This document shows positions 30,294 through 47,143 of a DNA stretch of 64,000 nt, in pieces (the stretch's first letter is position 1; each line of letters begins with the position of its first letter). A program made the translations under genes and the position numbers. The notes under the pieces are model-generated. The model ran no database searches, was not told the DNA's origin, and was given only the letters and a program-made list of their open reading frames with translations. The stretch comes from Escherichia coli (lineage in GTDB: Bacteria > Pseudomonadota > Gammaproteobacteria > Enterobacterales > Enterobacteriaceae), in assembly GCF_050920415.1 (NCBI RefSeq), contig NZ_CP169309.1; one strand, written 5' to 3'.

Positions 30294-31178
30294 TTAACGT
30301 TTCGCAACGCGAATGGATTGCGCCAGATGTGCAGGTTTCTCTTTGGTGACTTTTTGCGTTTCTGAAGCGTATGCCGTTTCTACACAAACAAAGGTCTTGT
30401 AGCCATCATCCGGCATATCGCCCATGCTAACTGAAAGCGCCGGTCCTGGGTTCCAGCCTACAACGTTCAGATGATGCTGGTGGCCTACGGCGATAATACG
30501 ATTCAGCGCTTCGTCATTAATTACGCTGCAATCTTGCGGATTCAGATACACGCGATCGGTACGGTCAGGGAAGGTCTGAATACCGTCGGTCAGTACATCT
30601 TCTTTCGCGTCATTTACTTTATCAATGAAGCGATCGCCTAGTCCACTGACGCTTACCTTAGCGATATCACCCACGTTAAAGTAGGTATGCAGAGCAGAGG
30701 TAGTTTCAAATTCGCCGTGTGCTTCAAGATCGATTTCACAGGTTTTACCCACGTGGAAATGCGCTAACAGCGTAAAGTCGTGCGGCCAGAATTTTTTCGT
30801 CTCTTCGCTTTGTGTCAATTCAAAAGTCAGCGCTACACCATCAGCATCTTCACGATGTGATTTCAGCGTCCACGGCAGGTTGCGGGCAAAACCGTGCGCA
30901 GGCAGACCTTGTTGTGCAGCCGGACCAAACCACGGCCAGCAAACCGGTATGCCACCGCGAATGGCGACGCCATTTTTGAACGGTGTGTTGTTACTCAACC
31001 ACAGAACTTCTTCTTCACCCGCAGGTTTCCACGAGAGAAGGTGTGCGCCCTGTAATGCAAAAGAGGCTTTTACCTGGGGATGATCGACCACAATGAGGTC
31101 CAGTTCATCCAGTTTACGACGGGAGAGGACAGGGGAGATTTGTTCGATGACCGGAAGGGCAAAAATTTTCTTAATCAT
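30294..31178 (-). CDS. yeaD: Glucose-6-phosphate 1-epimerase YeaD (about 294 aa)
   Basis: ORF track 30294..31199; aldose-1-epimerase-like; start trimmed to MIKKIFALP. Confidence 0.85.
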   Translation of the reverse strand: MIKKIFALPVIEQISPVLSRRKLDELDLIVVDHPQVKASFALQGAHLLSWKPAGEEEVLWLSNNTPFKNGVAIRGGIPVCWPWFGPAAQQGLPAHGFARNLPWTLKSHREDADGVALTFELTQSEETKKFWPHDFTLLAHFHVGKTCEIDLEAHGEFETTSALHTYFNVGDIAKVSVSGLGDRFIDKVNDAKEDVLTDGIQTFPDRTDRVYLNPQDCSVINDEALNRIIAVGHQHHLNVVGWNPGPALSVSMGDMPDDGYKTFVCVETAYASETQKVTKEKPAHLAQSIRVAKR

Positions 31179-31209
31179 GACGCAGTCCTTTAACTTCATT
31201 TTATCAGGT

Positions 31210-31240
31210 AAAAAAAAGAGCGACCGAAGTCGCTCTTTTT
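31210..31240 (-). terminator. Rho-independent (bidirectional) terminator downstream of gapA
   Basis: A-run, GAGCGAC-CGAA-GTCGCTC stem-loop, T-run. Confidence 0.8.
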
Positions 31241-31261
31241 AGATCACAGAGTCATCTCAAC

Positions 31262-32269
<1,008 letters not shown>

Positions 32270-32598
32270 CTATTTGTTAGTGAATAAAAGGTTGCCTGTA
32301 AAATTACAAAAACCTTACGCAGCGTCAAGCGGAATCGTGTCAATCATTGCGACAAATCAATCCTGTGCCTAAGCATTACGCGACTGACTCGCCTCACTCT
32401 TCCTTTGGGCTTGAGACCACATGGGGTCGGCGCCCCGAATTTTAAAGGGCAATTACGATAAAAATGTGATTTTCATCACGATTTAGGTGCAGCCATTTCG
32501 TCGAGATCAAGTTTAGGACAAAATTTTGCCAGTTGGTGTTAATGTTTTGTTAGAATCAGTCGCGTAATGTGAGCACGATTAAAGTGAGATGTGAGCAA

Positions 32599-33012
32599 AT
32601 GGCTAATAAACCTTCGGCAGAAGAACTGAAAAAAAATTTGTCCGAGATGCAGTTCTACGTGACGCAGAATCATGGGACAGAGCCGCCATTTACGGGTCGT
32701 TTACTGCATAACAAGCGTGACGGCGTATATCACTGTTTGATCTGCGATGCCCCGCTGTTTCATTCCCAAACCAAGTATGATTCCGGCTGTGGCTGGCCCA
32801 GTTTCTACGAACCGGTGAGTGAAGAATCCATTCGTTATATCAAAGACTTGTCACATGGAATGCAGCGCATAGAAATTCGTTGCGGTAACTGTGATGCCCA
32901 TCTGGGGCATGTCTTCCCCGACGGGCCGCAGCCAACGGGTGAACGTTATTGTGTTAACTCAGCCTCTTTACGCTTTACCGATGGCGAAAACGGCGAAGAA
33001 ATCAACGGTTGA
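32599..33012 (+). CDS. msrB: Peptide methionine sulfoxide reductase MsrB (137 aa)
   Basis: ORF track 32569..33012; start trimmed to [10 protein letters not shown]; zinc CxxC pairs and catalytic Cys. Confidence 0.9.
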
Positions 33013-33053
33013 AAAAACGATTCAGCAACTTATTCCACAGGAGCGGAAAAATT

Positions 33054-33326
33054 ATGAATCTTGATGACATTATCAACAGCATGACGCCTGAGGTATACCA
33101 GCGTTTGTCGACTGCTGTTGAACTGGGAAAATGGCCCGATGGCGTTGCGCTGACCGAGGAACAAAAAGAGAACTGCCTACAGCTGGTGATGCTGTGGCAA
33201 GCCCGCCATAATACCGAAGCTCAGCATATGACAATTGACACACATGGTCAGATGGTCATGAAGAGCAAACAGCAGTTAAAAGAAGATTTTGGTATCTCAG
33301 CAAAGCCTATTGCCATGTTTAAGTAA
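33054..33326 (+). CDS. yeaC: DUF1315 protein YeaC (about 90 aa)
   Basis: ORF track 33009..33326; start trimmed to MNLDDIINSM. Confidence 0.8.
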   Translation: MNLDDIINSMTPEVYQRLSTAVELGKWPDGVALTEEQKENCLQLVMLWQARHNTEAQHMTIDTHGQMVMKSKQQLKEDFGISAKPIAMFK

Positions 33327-33626
33327 GTGGTTTGTCCCCTTTTTGCCGCGGTTATAAAGGGGATAGCCAACAATAACCCCACGACTCATCTCAATTATCT
33401 CGCCCCGACCTGGCTAAGTCCCAGCCCGGTCTCTTGCAGTCGCGTTCACGCCTGAATGACTTCTCCTGAACTTAAGTCTCAGACCTATTTGGCCGGTAAT
33501 CCCTCTCAAATTTGCTCATTTTGCGTTCCACCTTCCATCACCCTGTAACAGACCCAGCCATTTTCTGCGTAATTGTGATCTGAGTTGTAAAACGCAGATC
33601 ATTATCTGTGTTTTAAAGATTTAATG

Positions 33627-41049: not shown

Positions 41050-42408
41050 ATGGAACAATATGATCAAATTGGCGCAAGACTGGACCGCTTGCCTTTGGCC
41101 CGGTTTCATTATCGTATATTTGGTATTATAAGCTTTAGTCTGTTATTAACGGGTTTTTTGAGTTATTCAGGCAATGTTGTTTTAGCAAAGCTGGTAAGCA
41201 ATGGATGGTCAAATAATTTCCTCAATGCCGCCTTTACCTCGGCATTAATGTTTGGTTATTTCATCGGCTCTCTTACCGGTGGGTTCATCGGTGATTATTT
41301 TGGGCGGCGCAGGGCTTTTCGCATAAATCTTCTCATCGTCGGTATTGCGGCAACAGGGGCCGCTTTTGTCCCTGATATGTACTGGCTCATTTTCTTTCGC
41401 TTCCTGATGGGCACAGGAATGGGGGCGCTGATTATGGTTGGCTATGCTTCGTTTACGGAGTTTATCCCCGCGACGGTGCGTGGAAAATGGTCCGCGCGGC
41501 TGTCATTTGTCGGTAACTGGTCGCCCATGCTGTCTGCGGCGATAGGCGTGGTGGTTATCGCTTTTTTTAGTTGGCGGATAATGTTTCTGCTGGGTGGTAT
41601 TGGCATACTGTTAGCCTGGTTTCTCTCAGGTAAATACTTTATTGAGTCGCCTCGATGGTTGGCGGGGAAAGGACAAATCGCAGGTGCAGAAAGCCAACTT
41701 CGTGAAGTAGAGCAGCAAATTGAAAGAGAGAAGAGTGTTCGTTTACCCCCGCTTACTTTGAATCAGAGCAACAGCAAGGCTAACGTAATCAATGGTACTT
41801 TCTGGCTGCTGTTTAAAGGGGAAATGTTACGACGTACATTAGTTGCGATTACTGTTTTAATTGCAATGAACATTTCACTTTATACCATCACCGTATGGAT
41901 ACCGACCATATTTGTTAACTCCGGTATTGATGTTGATAAATCAATATTAATGACTGCTGTTATTATGATTGGCGCTCCGGTAGGTATATTTATTGCGGCA
42001 TTAATTATTGATCATTTTCCTCGTCGATTATTTGGCTCCGCCTTGCTTATTATTATTGCCATGTTAGGCTATATCTATTCAATTCAGACTACAGAGTGGG
42101 CGATTTTAATCTATGGCCTGGTGATGATCTTCTTTTTATACATGTATGTTTGCTTCGCGTCGGCGGTTTATATCCCGGAGCTTTGGCCAACGCATTTACG
42201 CCTGCGCGGTTCGGGTTTCGTTAATGCCGTCGGACGGATCGTCGCGGTCTTCACGCCTTATGGCGTTGCGGCACTATTAACGCATTATGGGTCAATCACG
42301 GTGTTTATGGTGCTTGGCGTGATGTTAGTGCTCTGTGCGCTGGTTCTCTCCATTTTTGGCATCGAAACGCGGAAGGTGTCGCTGGAAGAGATTTCTGAGG
42401 TGAATTAA
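41050..42408 (+). CDS. ydjE: MFS transporter YdjE
   Basis: ORF track 452 aa; paralogous to ydjK. Confidence 0.85.
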   Translation: MEQYDQIGARLDRLPLARFHYRIFGIISFSLLLTGFLSYSGNVVLAKLVSNGWSNNFLNAAFTSALMFGYFIGSLTGGFIGDYFGRRRAFRINLLIVGIAATGAAFVPDMYWLIFFRFLMGTGMGALIMVGYASFTEFIPATVRGKWSARLSFVGNWSPMLSAAIGVVVIAFFSWRIMFLLGGIGILLAWFLSGKYFIESPRWLAGKGQIAGAESQLREVEQQIEREKSVRLPPLTLNQSNSKANVINGTFWLLFKGEMLRRTLVAITVLIAMNISLYTITVWIPTIFVNSGIDVDKSILMTAVIMIGAPVGIFIAALIIDHFPRRLFGSALLIIIAMLGYIYSIQTTEWAILIYGLVMIFFLYMYVCFASAVYIPELWPTHLRLRGSGFVNAVGRIVAVFTPYGVAALLTHYGSITVFMVLGVMLVLCALVLSIFGIETRKVSLEEISEVN

Positions 42409-43152: not shown

Positions 43153-44169
43153 TTAATCATCCGGCGTCAGTTCGCCGCGCAGGTTTTGGCTCATGGCCTT
43201 GCGAATGGTTTCAGTATCCAGTTCCTGGCTAAGCAGGTAATGCAGTTTTGTTAGCGTAGCTTCTACTGTCATATCAGCTCCACCAATGACGCCGGCATGG
43301 GCGAGGGCGTTACCGGTGGCATAACCCCCCATGTTCACTTTACCGGACATACATTGTGTCAGGTTGACTACCACAATTCCGCGATCGCTGGCTTCTTGTA
43401 ATTCTTGCAGGAAGGCTTTGTTTTGTGGCGCATTACCCACGCCATATGAGCGCAGAATCAATGCTTTCACCGGTTGGCGCAGAAAATTGCGCACGACGTC
43501 AGCAGAAATCCCCGGATAAATCGTCACTACGCCAATTGGTTGTGGGGTGATTGGATGAACGATCAATTCCCCTTCACCGTGCGGGGCGGGGGGCGTATTC
43601 AAACGACGAATATGGATACCTGCTTCCAGTAACGGAGGAAGGTTTGGAGAGGCAAACGCATCAAAACCATCGGCATGGGCTTTGGTGGTACGGTTGCCAC
43701 GATAAAGTCGATTATTAAAAAAGAGAGTTACTTCGTTGATAGGATAATTCGCCGCAACGTACAACGCATTCAGCAGATTAATTTGTCCGTCAGAGCGTAA
43801 CTCAGCCAGCGGGATTTGTGACCCTGTCACAATGACCGGTTTACCGAGATTCTCGAGCATGAACGACAGCGCAGAGGCGGTATACGCCATCGTGTCGGTG
43901 CCGTGCAGAATGACAAAACCATCATAGTCGTCATAATGCGCTTTAATATCTTCAGCAATATGCTGCCAGTCTTCTGGCGTCATATCTGAAGAGTCCATCA
44001 GCGGCGTATATTCATGAATGGTGAAATCTGGCATCTCCGGGCGATGGAATTCCGGCATCAGCGCCAGTTGGCGTTGTAGATGACCTGACACCGGAATATA
44101 ACCCTGCTCGGAACGCTGCATCCCGATGGTCCCGCCCGTGTAGGCGACGTAAATTGATTTCTTTTGCAT
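43153..44169 (-). CDS. ansA: Cytoplasmic L-asparaginase I
   Basis: ORF track 338 aa; asparaginase family. Confidence 0.9.
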   Translation of the reverse strand: MQKKSIYVAYTGGTIGMQRSEQGYIPVSGHLQRQLALMPEFHRPEMPDFTIHEYTPLMDSSDMTPEDWQHIAEDIKAHYDDYDGFVILHGTDTMAYTASALSFMLENLGKPVIVTGSQIPLAELRSDGQINLLNALYVAANYPINEVTLFFNNRLYRGNRTTKAHADGFDAFASPNLPPLLEAGIHIRRLNTPPAPHGEGELIVHPITPQPIGVVTIYPGISADVVRNFLRQPVKALILRSYGVGNAPQNKAFLQELQEASDRGIVVVNLTQCMSGKVNMGGYATGNALAHAGVIGGADMTVEATLTKLHYLLSQELDTETIRKAMSQNLRGELTPDD

Positions 44170-44300
44170 GATATTGATATGAATGATATCGAAAGAGCAA
44201 AAGTATATACGTGAGGGGCAGCGAGCGCACCTGGATACTCTGTGGATATGAGAAAAGTCCGGCAGAACGGAGGGATTAGTGTCCCGCCGGAGAAAAGTGG

Positions 44301-45023
44301 TTAATCCTGCAACGCATAGGTTACGGTGGTGACTACGCGTACCGTTTTATTAATCGCCGTAGGATCATCTTCATCACTGCCACTGGCGAAGATCTGGAAC
44401 ACGCCTTGTGAGGCATCGCTAATTGACCCCACCTGGCTACCTGAGTCCGTTGCAAATTGTAATGCTGCGTTGCGTGCATCTTTGGTGGCGGCGGCAATCA
44501 TCTCAGCGCGCAGTGCGCCAATACCATTAAAGCGATAGGCGACTTTGCTCTCAGCGATAGCGCCCTCCGTAGCGACTTGCAGTTCGTTTAATTTCGCGAC
44601 GACTTTTTCGACAGCAGCAACATTATGGGTTTTTATCGTCACTGACCCGTCTGCGTTATAGCGTGGCATTGTGGGATCATCTTTCAGATAAAAGGAATCA
44701 GTTCGCTTGCTTGTCCATTGGCCCAGGGTTATCTCTTTCTCGTTAATCCCCTGAGCATTGAGTTCGGCAACAATTTTTTTCTGCGCGTCTTCCAGTTTCG
44801 GGAACAGTTCGCCGGGTATATTACCCTTAAAGTTAATCGCAATTGTTAATTCTGCCGTATCTGCGCGAACTTCTTTTTCAGAAAGCCCACGCACATTTAC
44901 ATAACGGTTATTGGTTTTTAAATGTTTAACACCATCGCCAACAAAATAACCACAGGCGCTAATCCCCAGTCCGAGGACGATAGCGGCAATTAAAGAGGGG
45001 GCCTTATTCACTGATGACTCCAT
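44301..45023 (-). CDS. Hypothetical exported or membrane-anchored protein, SIMPL/DUF541-like (about 239 aa; ORF extends to 45113)
   Basis: ORF track 44301..45113 (-); N-terminal hydrophobic segment APSLIAAIVLGLGISACGYFV; resemblance to SIMPL proteins (BP26/YggE type) is by eye only; a gene here is not expected from K-12 order. Confidence 0.55.
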   Translation of the reverse strand: MESSVNKAPSLIAAIVLGLGISACGYFVGDGVKHLKTNNRYVNVRGLSEKEVRADTAELTIAINFKGNIPGELFPKLEDAQKKIVAELNAQGINEKEITLGQWTSKRTDSFYLKDDPTMPRYNADGSVTIKTHNVAAVEKVVAKLNELQVATEGAIAESKVAYRFNGIGALRAEMIAAATKDARNAALQFATDSGSQVGSISDASQGVFQIFASGSDEDDPTAINKTVRVVTTVTYALQD

Positions 45024-45126
45024 ATCAGATGCTAAATGAGCAAGGGAATGTAGTGGAGAGAGGGAGTGAAAGACAGTCCGATTCAGGAGTGTGGCCGACA
45101 GCATATCGGCCACATTTTTGCAGGAT

Positions 45127-46983
45127 TTAACGCACGTTGGCGCAGGTCAGGCAAAACGCATAACGGTTTTGTGGGTCGTTAAACGCTGCCAGCTTGTCGC
45201 TTTCACTTTTAACGGTAGAGGCTACCGAGGCCAGCGGTGCAGGTAACATGGCCTGGAACGCATCTGGCAACATTGCCCGGACAGAACCAGACATATTGTC
45301 CATCACTTTGTCGAAGAAGGTCGGTTCATCAACGTAGTATTCCAGATGCCACTGTTTCACTTTTGCCAGCTCTGCTGCTTTGGCAACCGCATCATCGAAA
45401 TCCCCGAGACTATCGACCAGCCCGTTAGCTTTTGCATCCTGACCGGTCCAGACGTGGCCCTGGGCGATTTTATCAATCTGCTCCGGCGTCGAATGACGCG
45501 CATCAGCAACCAGCGTGATAAAGCGTTTATAGCCATTCTCAATGCTTAACTGCATCATCTGCTGCGCTTCCGGCGGCAGTGCCTTGGTGATAGAAACATC
45601 CGCCAGCGGTGAAGTTGAGACGCCATCGGTATGAACACCAATCGAATCCAAACTATTTTCTACGGTAGTGACCACGCCGAAGATACCGATAGAACCGGTC
45701 AGGGTGCTGGGGTTAGCCACAATGTAATTAGCTGGCGTGGAAATCCAGTAACCACCAGATGCCGCCATGCCGCCCATCGATACAACCACAGGCTTACCCG
45801 CTGCCCTGGCAGCTGCCAGTTCAGCGCGAATCACTTCAGAGGCGGTAACGCTGCCGCCAGGGCTATTAACACGCAGAACAATCGCTTTCACTTTCGGGTC
45901 AAGGCGAGCGTCGCGGATTTGTGCCGCAGTGGTATCACCGCCAACATTCCCCTGAGTTTCCTCGCCATCCATAATTGCGCCATTCGCGAAGACGACACCG
46001 ATGCTGTCACCGGTATCTGCCGGCGTTTTCAATGCGTAATCGTAATAACTGATGGCGCGATAATTTTTATCAGTCTTACTCCAGCCGAACTCTTTGGTCA
46101 GAGCTTTTTCGATTTCGGCACTTGATGCCAGTGCATCGACCAGCTTGTTTTCCAGCGCATATTTCGCGGTATCGCCACCGGTTTTGGTTAAACCCTCAAG
46201 CAACCCTTGCGCACCAGGGAATACCTGCTGAGCAGGGATCTGCCGGTTAGCGGCAACAGTATTCAGATAGTTTTGCCACAGCTCACCGATCCAGCGGCTG
46301 TCAGCTTCGCGGGCTGCCGGTGACATATCATCACGAATAAACGGTTCAACGGCAGATTTATACGTACCCACGCGGAACACATGGGTGGAAACTTTCAGCT
46401 TATCCAGTAACGATTTGTAGTACAGACCGTTGGTAGCAAAACCGTGCAGATCCACCACGCCTTGTGGAGATAGCCAAATTTTGTTGGCGAAACTGGCGAG
46501 ATAATATTGCCCCTGGCTGTAGTTCTCGCCTATGGCATAAACTGGTTTCCCGCTGTCACGAAACTCTTTCAGGGCTTTGCCGATGTACTGCATAGACGGC
46601 TGGTCGCCGCCTGCGAAGTTTTTCAGATCCATCACGATACCGGTGATATTGCGGTCATCCTTCGCCTGGCGAATGGTGTTGACGATATCAAACAGTGAGT
46701 TTTCCTGCAGACGATCGGAACTGGCACCAAGGAGCTGGCGGCTTAGCTTACTAAACCGCTGAGAACTGTCGGGTTTATCGACGATTACACCAGATATGTC
46801 CAGCAGCAGCGCGCCACGACTGGCCGTTTCTTTCGAATCACCACCACTGACCTGCATCCAGATCCCCACACCAACCAGTACGAGAAAAATAAAGAACAGG
46901 TTAAGTACCATTTCACGGACGAAATTCAGCAGACGCCACGTCCATTTAAAAAATCCGGCAATAAATCGCCAAAGGGTTCGCAT
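45127..46983 (-). CDS. sppA: Signal peptide peptidase SppA (protease IV), 618 aa
   Basis: ORF track 45127..47127; start trimmed to [12 protein letters not shown]; tandem S49 peptidase domains. Confidence 0.9.
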
Positions 46984-47143
46984 GTATTCTCCCAAATTAA
47001 GGTCACACCTGTCACAGGCGCAATAGATGTGGTTATCGTAATGACCCAACCGGCACTTGTCAGCAGGAATTGCGGACTGTGCTGTAACAAAATCCACTCT
47101 CGTGTTAATTTTGTGAATAAATATCATGACAGGAGTTAATCAA

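Follow-up and report, generated by a model that had tools for sequence, protein, structure and literature searches.

The spacer between sppA and ansA in the 64,000-nucleotide stretch of Escherichia coli DNA analysed here (the window) carries an intact gene for a SIMPL-domain protein, and comparative evidence indicates that it is a genuine accessory gene under selective maintenance. We consider it highly probable that one account covers the whole locus, in which a maintained ancestral SIMPL envelope gene was lost from K-12-type genomes and, where it persists, would be reached by read-through from sppA and encode a signal-anchored periplasmic domain with a non-enzymatic role. The gene is already known, being annotated by RefSeq as WP_001030438.1 and in O157 Sakai as ECs_2473; it is ordinary accessory content and not the unexpected gene that a first-pass annotation of this DNA had described.

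The spacer extends from 44170 to 45126 (957 bp), between the minus-strand sppA stop codon TAA at 45127–45129 and the ansA start at 44169, and its K-12 equivalent is 166 bp. The first-pass annotation had put the gap at about 960 bp and had described adjacent sppA and ansA genes with a short spacer in K-12, both of which agree with these measurements. A single long open reading frame occupies the minus strand of the spacer (44301–45113, 270 residues from the furthest GTG), with alternative internal starts at ATG 45023 (240 residues) and GTG 45011 (236 residues). On the basis of the open reading frame list and the RefSeq coding sequence, we place the SIMPL-domain gene at 44301–45011 on the minus strand (236 residues, GTG start, TAA at 44301–44303). 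GTG 45011 is the start that RefSeq uses in the identical genome NZ_CP169399.1, and the protein of the window is identical to the RefSeq entry, named 'SIMPL domain-containing protein'. A Shine–Dalgarno sequence, GGAG, can be read 6 nt upstream of this codon (45018–45021, minus strand), with AAGGAG or AAGGAA kept at the aligned position in other Escherichia species. Of the candidate starts, moreover, GTG 45011 alone is conserved across E. albertii, E. fergusonii, E. whittamii and two further Escherichia species, and the position of ATG 45023 reads ATA in most of the compared species. The 270-residue form is unlikely because its start would fall within the hairpin that follows sppA. The originally proposed frame of about 239–270 residues is thus intact, on the same strand and up to 270 residues long, but its conserved-start form has 236. 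The gene is somewhat low in GC when set against its flanks, the comparison that the first-pass annotation had suggested (47.8% versus 50–52% in the neighbouring genes; GC3 46% versus 51–55%). Its dN/dS is 0.067 against E. albertii and 0.109 against E. fergusonii, and its dS against these two species is at least as high as, and in the range of, that of the flanking genes.

The assignment to the SIMPL family (DUF541), initially made by eye, proved correct. A search of Pfam with the 240-residue ATG-start form gave a significant match to PF04402 (E = 3.2e-18, 67.2 bits) that covers the complete model (1–205 of 205) and residues 42–236 of the query, and the same domain is carried by all homologues listed at E below about 3e-27, one fragment excepted. 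The AlphaFold model of the protein has a mean pLDDT of 89.4 and predicts a two-lobed alpha/beta SIMPL domain at about residues 33–236. Foldseek matched this model to the Campylobacter jejuni SIMPL-like protein (7C50; E = 4.3e-16, target TM-score of 0.80) and to BP26 (4HVZ; E = 4.6e-11). Sequence matches in the PDB were 10am_A (E = 7e-28, residues 9–236, including most of the N-terminal helix) and 7c50 (E = 3e-26), and the family profile gave E values of 8e-66 for 10am, 3e-63 for 7c50 and 3.7e-5 for BP26 (4hvz). The homologues conserve two motifs, G-[YF]-F-[IV]-G-x-G and R-x-V-x-V-[RK]-G-x-x-E. By both similarity and profile, the protein falls within the membrane-anchored SIMPL subfamily of the C. 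jejuni 7C50/10AM type, and we place it in the same subfamily as the C. jejuni protein on these sequence grounds.

Similarity to the C. jejuni structures (7C50/7C51 and the full-length 'Periplasmic protein' 10AM) extends along almost the entire length and takes in most of the 10AM helix; the proteins are about 231–236 residues long, and the predicted E. coli fold superposes on 7C50 at 32% identity. The E. coli protein differs from its Campylobacter counterpart in its enterobacterial host, in its sppA–ansA locus in Escherichia and Citrobacter, and in sequence, the identity being only about 32%. The 10AM entry contains nine chains, which may be a sign of an oligomer. A full-text literature search found no functional data on the Campylobacter protein and, on the function of this subfamily, only the Sakai microarray table discussed below.

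Two further members of the family are more distant. Brucella BP26/Omp28 (4HVZ, the 26-kDa periplasmic immunogenic protein) shares the Pfam family and the fold class, the relationship being a remote one (17% identity, TM-score of about 0.5, rmsd of 7.5 Å). BP26 has its signal peptide cleaved and forms a large soluble oligomer; unlike BP26, the E. coli protein retains a conserved hydrophobic N-terminal helix. YggE, the oxidative stress defence protein, is likewise a SIMPL-family envelope protein of E. coli, and its NCBIfam equivalog model, NF008299, matched at 19.5 bits (E = 5e-4) against a curated cut-off of 249. YggE is encoded at a different locus and is a distant, non-orthologous paralogue; yggE is present in K-12, unlike the sppA–ansA gene. 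The label 'YggE type' given at first pass therefore does not fit a protein whose closest solved relatives are 7C50 and 10AM. A second copy of YggE, acting as YggE does in oxidative-stress defence and soluble in the periplasm after cleavage of its signal peptide, would account for the shared Pfam family, for the YggE model being the sole NCBIfam match and for an N terminus that resembles a signal peptide, but we regard it as quite improbable given the equivalog score, the strength of the family profile on 10AM and 7C50 relative to BP26, and a helix that runs into a subfamily-conserved motif and aligns with the N terminus of full-length 10am_A. Because of this continuation into the motif and this alignment, the helix would appear to be retained in the mature protein.

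The N-terminal hydrophobic segment noted at first pass corresponds to a helix at residues 4–30 of the AlphaFold model (codons at 44922–45002, minus strand), a putative signal-anchor or signal peptide that includes ISAC (Cys20) and GYFVGDG; both the hydrophobic segment and the G-[YF]-F-[IV]-G-x-G motif show conservation across 108 homologues. We propose that a short N-terminal tail and one hydrophobic helix (about residues 5–27) precede the SIMPL domain and that, by homology, the helix serves as an uncleaved signal-anchor in the inner membrane with the domain facing the periplasm. The flanks of the helix carry family mean net charges of +1.4 on the C-terminal side and +0.5 on the N-terminal side. 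Read by the positive-inside rule, these charges give no support to a periplasmic domain and no clear orientation, and the eukaryotic SIMPL protein is intracellular. From what has been proposed for other SIMPL proteins, the role is most likely that of a non-enzymatic, dispensable envelope protein acting in scaffolding, binding or stress protection. An anti-phage defence function found no counterpart in PADLOC, which returned no match for the gene.

In E. coli, lipidation at Cys20 could take the place of the signal-anchor, in which case the protein would be a true lipoprotein in Escherichia, cut before Cys20 by signal peptidase II and sorted to the outer membrane through Gly at +2. The sequence MNKAPSLIAAIVLGLG-ISAC-G fits a lipobox, with Lys in the n-region, I-S-A at −3 to −1 and Cys20, and it agrees with the lipoprotein rule [LVI][ASTVI][GAS]C at residues 15–35 (K3, a hydrophobic stretch and I-S-A-C20). 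The rule also fits E. albertii and the Citrobacter-type sequence (ITAC), and the Sakai annotation reads 'putative lipoprotein'. However, the cysteine is not conserved among orthologues and homologues: it is missing from 97 of the 108 family members (only 11 have any Cys within the first 45 residues), the close homologue P0009 has Gly in its place (ITAG), E. fergusonii reads I-T-V-C, in which position −1 is a disfavoured Val, and the GYFVGDG that follows the cysteine belongs to the conserved hydrophobic helix. We consider lipidation somewhat unlikely and prefer the uncleaved signal-anchor.

The order sppA–gene–ansA is shared by E. albertii (86% amino acid identity), E. fergusonii (70%), and E. 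whittamii and two further Escherichia species (92–96%). It recurs on a contig (L031) whose SIMPL protein is 68% identical and whose SppA fragment is 97–98% identical to SppA of the Citrobacter freundii complex, so that no fewer than five other Escherichia species and one Citrobacter contig have the gene at this site. This common order indicates that the gene already lay between sppA and ansA in the common ancestor of the Escherichia and Citrobacter carriers. The first-pass annotation had left the choice between a strain-specific insertion and a gene lost from K-12; occupancy of one site across Escherichia species and Citrobacter contradicts the former and supports the latter.

The segment absent from K-12-type genomes, as defined by aligning the spacers of the window, K-12-like genomes, E. 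albertii and E. fergusonii, comprises the whole gene and its 5′ leader (44297–45090, endpoints that are approximate because the adjoining remnants are strongly diverged). The alignment shows one deletion allele, net 791 bp, that removed the gene and kept both the sppA hairpin and the ansA-upstream region. This last region (CACGTATATACTTTTGCTCTTTCGATATCATTCATATCAATATC, 44170–44230, minus strand) is 92% identical to K-12 in the alignments and is common to the gene-carrying and empty E. coli alleles and the gene-carrying Citrobacter contig; the C. freundii and C. koseri spacers that carry no gene lack it. These two empty spacers (55 and 127 bp, respectively) and that of K-12 (166 bp) are mutually unrelated, which argues that the three losses are independent deletions and do not reflect one ancestral empty site. 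A CCAC occurs both at the hairpin end and just past the SIMPL stop codon, compatible with a deletion at microhomology, although the K-12 remnants used in this comparison are strongly diverged. Beyond Escherichia and Citrobacter the nearest relatives are environmental sequences of 50–58% identity, which, together with the lower GC, makes an old horizontal acquisition that predates the Escherichia–Citrobacter split likely.

The opposite polarity, with the K-12 arrangement ancestral and the gene a horizontally acquired, strain-specific islet of some lineages, would draw on the same environmental kinship and on the same deficit of a few points in GC and GC3, as well as on the patchy spread within E. 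coli (ST131, phylogroup E and a few other lineages) and on a segment of about 1.5 kb that is near-identical to ST131 between flanks that differ by about 3%, a pattern in which the allele moves by recombination. We judge it very improbable, and consider insertion largely refuted by comparisons at the sequence level: the gene sits at the same site across species with a divergence that tracks species distance (96, 94, 92, 86, 70 and 68% amino acid identity), its dS is no lower than in the flanking genes, the site has no flanking direct repeats, integrase, tRNA or IS element, and the gene-free spacers of K-12, C. freundii and C. koseri bear no relation to one another. We found no meaningful direct repeats around the gene, no mobility genes among the open reading frames, and neither the insertion signatures nor the absence from the sister-species site that would mark an islet or a mobile element. 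In the neighbourhoods of homologues at 22 loci in other phyla, recurrence was seen only within Chryseobacterium or sphingomonads, and sppA was never adjacent; this survey yielded no conserved neighbourhood from which a function could be read. A spurious open reading frame or a decaying pseudogene in a long spacer, which absence from K-12 and nothing more would suggest, is vanishingly improbable in view of the full-model Pfam match, the high-confidence fold, a dN/dS of about 0.1 across species, an intact and annotated gene in every sampled genome of the 943 carriers and regulated expression in microarray data. Separately, a perfect 10-nt inverted repeat (44303–44312 and 45118–45127) overlaps the ends of the SIMPL gene and sppA; we rejected it as the end of an element, as about one such repeat is expected by chance per 1.5 kb by our estimate, and it is not conserved in E. 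albertii and lies off the K-12 deletion endpoints.

Of 5426 complete E. coli genomes, 943 carry the gene, in each case as a single copy on the chromosome, with a patchy distribution that takes in ST131, phylogroup E and a few other lineages; O157:H7 is among the carriers. All 60 sampled rows of carrier genomes bear the annotation 'SIMPL domain-containing protein'. The K-12-type empty junction was found in 4481 of the 5426 genomes at an identity of at least 93.8%, so that, on this sequence census, K-12 and about 83% of complete genomes have lost the gene by deletion. Its presence is thus variable, as the first-pass annotation had supposed, and it is not a core gene of K-12 and most E. coli. The gene belongs with the small K-12-absent segments of O157:H7: Sakai ECs_2473 is the same gene at the same position (97.5% nucleotide identity) and had already been listed as absent from MG1655 and present in EDL933. 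In an O157 Sakai microarray study, ECs2473, missing in MG1655, was induced 11.65-fold by lettuce cell-wall polysaccharide (PMC4940412).

The copy in the window is an ST131-type allele, 99.7% identical to that of ST131, in a rare lineage; there, the flanking sequence has diverged by about 3% from ST131, O157 and K-12. Over a segment of about 1.5 kb around the gene, the window strain and ST131 differ at 0.5% of positions, against 3.3% in the flanks, which shows that the gene-carrying allele has moved between distant E. coli lineages by homologous recombination. The empty allele has flanking genes that are about 97% identical to those of the window; its 40-nt stub after sppA matches the window at 70% identity (E. 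albertii, 87.5%) and its junction-proximal 70 nt at 55% (E. albertii, 59%). Measured against any gene-carrying Escherichia allele, the remnant DNA at the junction is therefore at least as distant as E. albertii. It is conceivable, if unlikely, that presence and absence constitute an old polymorphism that has persisted across lineages, rather than a recent loss. Remnant divergence and recombination would fit long-term upkeep of both alleles by balancing or niche-dependent selection acting on an envelope protein that ST131 and O157 possess, and would alternatively fit a deletion allele imported from another Escherichia lineage. If the polymorphism is indeed old, recombination would have maintained presence and absence side by side over a long period, and the locus would offer a compact case of this.

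The practical value of these assignments is small: pipelines already call the gene, and what is added is its correct start codon, its subfamily and the direction in which the locus has evolved. They also show that the K-12 sppA–ansA gene order is a derived state, and they concern one of the few non-prophage single-gene differences that separate ST131 and O157:H7 from K-12 and most commensal lineages. As such a difference, and as a gene for a SIMPL envelope protein, it is a cheap knock-out target for work on SIMPL proteins or on lineage-specific features of the envelope.

A GC-rich hairpin, GTGGCCGA / CAGCATA / TCGGCCAC, lies just past the sppA stop codon (45091–45113; identified by folding of both strands and by alignment) and is present in gene-carrying and empty alleles alike in the alignment with K-12, E. 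albertii and E. fergusonii. Its fold (−17.8 to −19.7 kcal/mol) is far more stable than that of shuffled sequence on either strand (z-score of −3.9 for the gene strand, −6.7 for the plus strand). An ATTTTTG run (45114–45120) follows the hairpin on the plus strand only, where the predicted fold extends the stem into it; on the gene strand it forms an A-tract before the stem. The first-pass annotation was right that the hairpin is real and that ATTTTTG adjoins it, but gave its coordinates one base off (45092–45114), and the run cannot serve as a terminator element of sppA, being on the wrong strand, antisense to both sppA and the SIMPL gene. On the gene strand, the sequence 3′ of the stem is ACUCCUGAAUCGG and the U-tract is missing. 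A terminator scan of 44000–45300 returned 0 sites, and an Rfam search of the spacers gave no match at E up to 1. Because the T-run lies on the antisense strand, sppA in the window allele has no canonical Rho-independent terminator. In K-12 and E. fergusonii, but not in the window, a T-run follows the stem on the sppA strand; that of K-12 could equally well be inherited from an ancestral terminator of sppA such as E. fergusonii has.

A crude promoter scan of 44000–45300 gave no promoter-like site in the 115-bp leader or elsewhere in that interval, even upstream of ansA, and is therefore of limited sensitivity; by eye the leader has no convincing −35/−10 or sigma-E pair. Because the sppA hairpin lacks a gene-strand U-tract and the leader shows no promoter-like site, we infer that transcripts of the SIMPL gene probably arise, at least in part, by read-through from sppA. 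In E. fergusonii a full terminator separates the gene from sppA, which means that the gene must have its own promoter in that species. At the other end, a terminator-like hairpin follows the gene on the minus strand (44248–44291), with an 11-pair stem at 44258–44291 and then CUUUUCUCAU at 44248–44257. It folds at −18.3 kcal/mol (z-score of −4.7), escaped the simple terminator scan because its loop is 12 nt long, and is where the SIMPL transcript would be expected to end (44258–44291). Escherichia sp. E1V33 and E. whittamii preserve the stem, with a T-to-C substitution that converts a G-U pair to G-C.

The 957-bp gap between sppA (minus strand, 45127-46983 in its RefSeq form) and ansA (minus strand, 43153-44169) contains one long ORF, on the minus strand at 44301-45113. 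The most upstream start codon available, a GTG at 45113, falls within a hairpin and is probably not used. RefSeq begins the gene at a GTG at 45011, giving a 236-aa product; this codon has a GGAG 6 nt upstream and is kept in all other Escherichia species aligned. The first-pass annotation had described an ORF of about 239-270 aa: the ORF is indeed intact, but the ATG at 45023 implied by a length of 239 aa is ATA in most other Escherichia species aligned. Nor is the gene unexpected, as that annotation had it, since it is already known, being annotated in RefSeq (WP_001030438.1) and as ECs_2473 in O157:H7 Sakai. Mechanical ORF calling extends sppA to 666 aa (45127-47127, from an upstream ATG at 47127), overlapping the beginning of the divergent ydjA region; the start in RefSeq and in all other species examined is the ATG at 46983 (618 aa, MRTLWRF...).

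As its layout had suggested by eye, the protein is SIMPL-like, matching the Pfam SIMPL model (PF04402) over its whole length (E 3.2e-18). The sole NCBIfam match, the YggE equivalog, scored only 19.5 bits, far short of its curated 249-bit cut-off; the protein is a distant paralogue of YggE and not the YggE-type protein first proposed. By sequence, the closest solved structures are PDB 10am_A (E 7e-28), a 231-aa 'Periplasmic protein' present in nine chains, and the SIMPL-like protein of Campylobacter jejuni (7C50/7C51; E 3e-26). The 10am_A alignment begins at residue 9 and so takes in a large part of the N-terminal helix. A family profile built from 58 homologues recovered 10am (8e-66) and 7C50/7C51 (3e-63) strongly, but Brucella BP26 at no better than 3.7e-5. 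The AlphaFold model (pLDDT 89.4) has an N-terminal helix at residues 4-30 followed by an alpha/beta domain, and its first two matches in a Foldseek structure set lacking 10am were 7C50 (E 4e-16, target TM-score 0.80) and BP26 (E 5e-11). The 10am entry, dated 2026 and for which a literature search found no publication, holds the full-length 231-aa protein and may show how this SIMPL subfamily assembles.

The predicted helix bears out the N-terminal hydrophobic anchor or signal segment noted earlier, and homologues conserve a hydrophobic helix with G-[YF]-F-[IV]-G-x-G at its end and, after it, R-x-V-x-V-[RK]-G-x-x-E. Lipidation in Escherichia is a possible alternative to a membrane anchor: the E. 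coli sequence satisfies the lipobox rule, with K3 and then I-S-A-C20, and the Sakai annotation of ECs_2473 reads 'putative lipoprotein'. However, a Cys anywhere in the first 45 residues occurs in just 11 of 108 full-length homologues; the lipobox position reads I-T-V-C in E. fergusonii, and a close relative has Gly in place of the Cys. Because the helix is conserved among homologues but the Cys is not, we interpret the N-terminus as a membrane anchor that stays on the mature protein. The charge distribution around the helix does not decide its orientation; homology to BP26 and YggE, together with the name of the Campylobacter protein, points to a periplasmic location. The protein would have a single-pass anchor at the inner membrane and its SIMPL domain in the periplasm, probably with a non-enzymatic, dispensable role in the envelope. 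To our knowledge, no SIMPL-family member has a defined biochemical activity, and gene neighbourhoods in other phyla gave no functional hint.

The gene is real and functioning. It is under purifying selection (dN/dS of 0.067 against E. albertii and 0.109 against E. fergusonii), with dS values of 1.2 and 1.7, respectively, that equal or exceed those of sppA, ansA and pncA. The protein is evolving more quickly than those encoded next to it: its identity to the E. albertii and E. fergusonii versions is 86% and 70%, compared with 97% and 87% in SppA and 99% and 94% in AnsA. The gene's GC content is 47.8% (GC3 46%) versus 50-52% (GC3 51-55%) in the neighbours. Transcription is regulated in O157: on a Sakai microarray, ECs2473, which the study lists as absent from MG1655 and present in EDL933, rose 11.65-fold with lettuce cell-wall polysaccharide (PMC4940412).

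Across the E. coli pangenome the gene is variable, being found in 943 of 5426 complete genomes, always as a single chromosomal copy; identity was at least 99% in 585, including O25b:H4-ST131 and SE15, and 95-99% in 358 (O157:H7, O145). A K-12-type junction with a 166-bp spacer is present in 4481 genomes, among them ATCC 25922 and O104:H4, in agreement with the K-12 gene order given in the first-pass annotation, where sppA and ansA are adjacent with a short spacer. All 4481 junctions are at least 93.8% identical to K-12, so the empty E. coli loci form a single allele class. The gene is thus ordinary accessory content. Neither arrangement is present in one or two of the 5426 genomes, perhaps because of larger deletions or rearrangements at the locus; two ansA-proximal spacer matches fell on records labelled as plasmids.

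The first-pass annotation had left open a strain-specific insertion or a loss from K-12. The same sppA-gene-ansA order occurs in E. albertii, E. fergusonii, E. whittamii and two other Escherichia species, and on a short assembly contig (L031) whose SIMPL protein is 68% identical and whose SppA fragment is 97-98% identical to SppA of the Citrobacter freundii complex, which marks the change as a loss in K-12 and not an insertion here. The empty spacers of typical C. freundii (55 bp) and C. koseri (127 bp) are unrelated to each other and to that of K-12, and all three differ in their endpoints. The two Citrobacter spacers also lack the conserved ansA-upstream block common to the gene-carrying Citrobacter contig and Escherichia. 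The C. freundii spacer is merely a 55-bp terminator hairpin, and that of C. koseri (L040 4358-4484) holds a REP-like palindromic element, GCCGGATGGCG ... GTAGGCCGGATAAGGCG. The parsimonious reading of these sequences is that the gene stood between sppA and ansA in the common Escherichia/Citrobacter ancestor, with several independent deletions since. The K-12 loss is a net 791-bp deletion, roughly window 44297-45090, that left the hairpin after sppA and the promoter region of ansA in place. We found no resemblance to a mobile element at the site in ORFs or flanking direct repeats. The initial observation is confirmed and its interpretation largely correct as to an anchored SIMPL protein missing from K-12, though not as to the YggE type or an insertion. 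The nearest relatives outside Escherichia and Citrobacter are environmental sequences only 50-58% identical, such as a Phycisphaerales genome assembled from a metagenome, and a much older horizontal origin is therefore possible.

E. coli MFDS1022581 (NZ_CP169399.1), from animal-source food in South Korea, matches the window at 100% identity. Over 24 kb (33000-57000) just five other complete genomes reach 98.6-98.9%, the next best being about 96.5%, which places the strain in a rare or divergent lineage. Compared with ST131, 44045-45560 has 8 differences in 1516 bp (0.5%), 2 of them inside the gene, whereas divergence is 3.3% in the sppA, ansA and pncA DNA on either side; compared with O157, the segment shows 1.7% divergence. 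It looks as if the gene-carrying segment was swapped between this lineage and that of ST131 by homologous recombination. We also compared the empty-allele remnants in a K-12-like sequence (L002 4001-4166) with window 44170-44300 and 45087-45126. Identity to the window was 70% for the 40-nt stub after sppA (E. albertii, 87.5%), 55% for the junction-proximal 70 nt of the 3' spacer (59%) and 92% for the ansA-proximal 61 nt (92%); in neighbouring coding DNA, the window and the K-12-like genome share about 97% identity. Near the junction, the distance of the K-12-type remnants from every gene-carrying Escherichia allele equals or exceeds that of E. albertii. This divergence, over the approximately 110 nt compared, could mean that the allele is old, that it changed fast once the deletion had occurred or that it was imported from a different lineage.

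The hairpin next to the sppA stop exists, one base away from where it was first placed: its stem spans 45091-45113, folds far better than shuffled sequence and adjoins ATTTTTG at 45114-45120. Because the stem is followed by ACUCCUGAAUCGG on the strand of sppA and the SIMPL gene, with the T-run on the plus strand, the window allele lacks a canonical intrinsic terminator after sppA, and a terminator scan reported none there. On the sppA strand a U-tract is present in K-12 (GGCCAC-ATTATTTTTT) and E. fergusonii (GGCCAC-ATTTTTTTG). Since the hairpin has no U-tract and an insensitive promoter scan found no promoter-like site in the 115-bp leader, read-through from sppA probably accounts for at least part of the gene's transcription. 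Transcription would probably end at the gene's own terminator-like hairpin (44258-44291, then CUUUUCUCAU), whose stem is preserved in cryptic Escherichia lineages. A perfect 10-nt inverted repeat, AATCCTGCAA / TTGCAGGATT (44303-44312 and 45118-45127), extends over the stop codons of the SIMPL gene and sppA and their surroundings. By our estimate, chance alone would give about one repeat of this kind per 1.5 kb; E. albertii does not conserve this one, and its position differs from the endpoints of the K-12 deletion.

Gene content beside pncA also varies between species. In E. fergusonii (L005 7500-10700) and Escherichia sp. MOD1-EC7003 (L009 6515-6559), pncA leads directly to the yeaC/msrB/gapA region (window ~30300-33400), and the ydjE-ydjL cluster is therefore missing. 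E. albertii (L003/L004 7544-8125) has an additional ORF of 185-193 aa, with no Pfam match, between pncA and ydjE. The ydjE gene is intact in the window (41050-42408) and a pseudogene in Sakai (L038 33062-35630) and Xuzhou21, interrupted or truncated beside an IS629/IS1203 copy.
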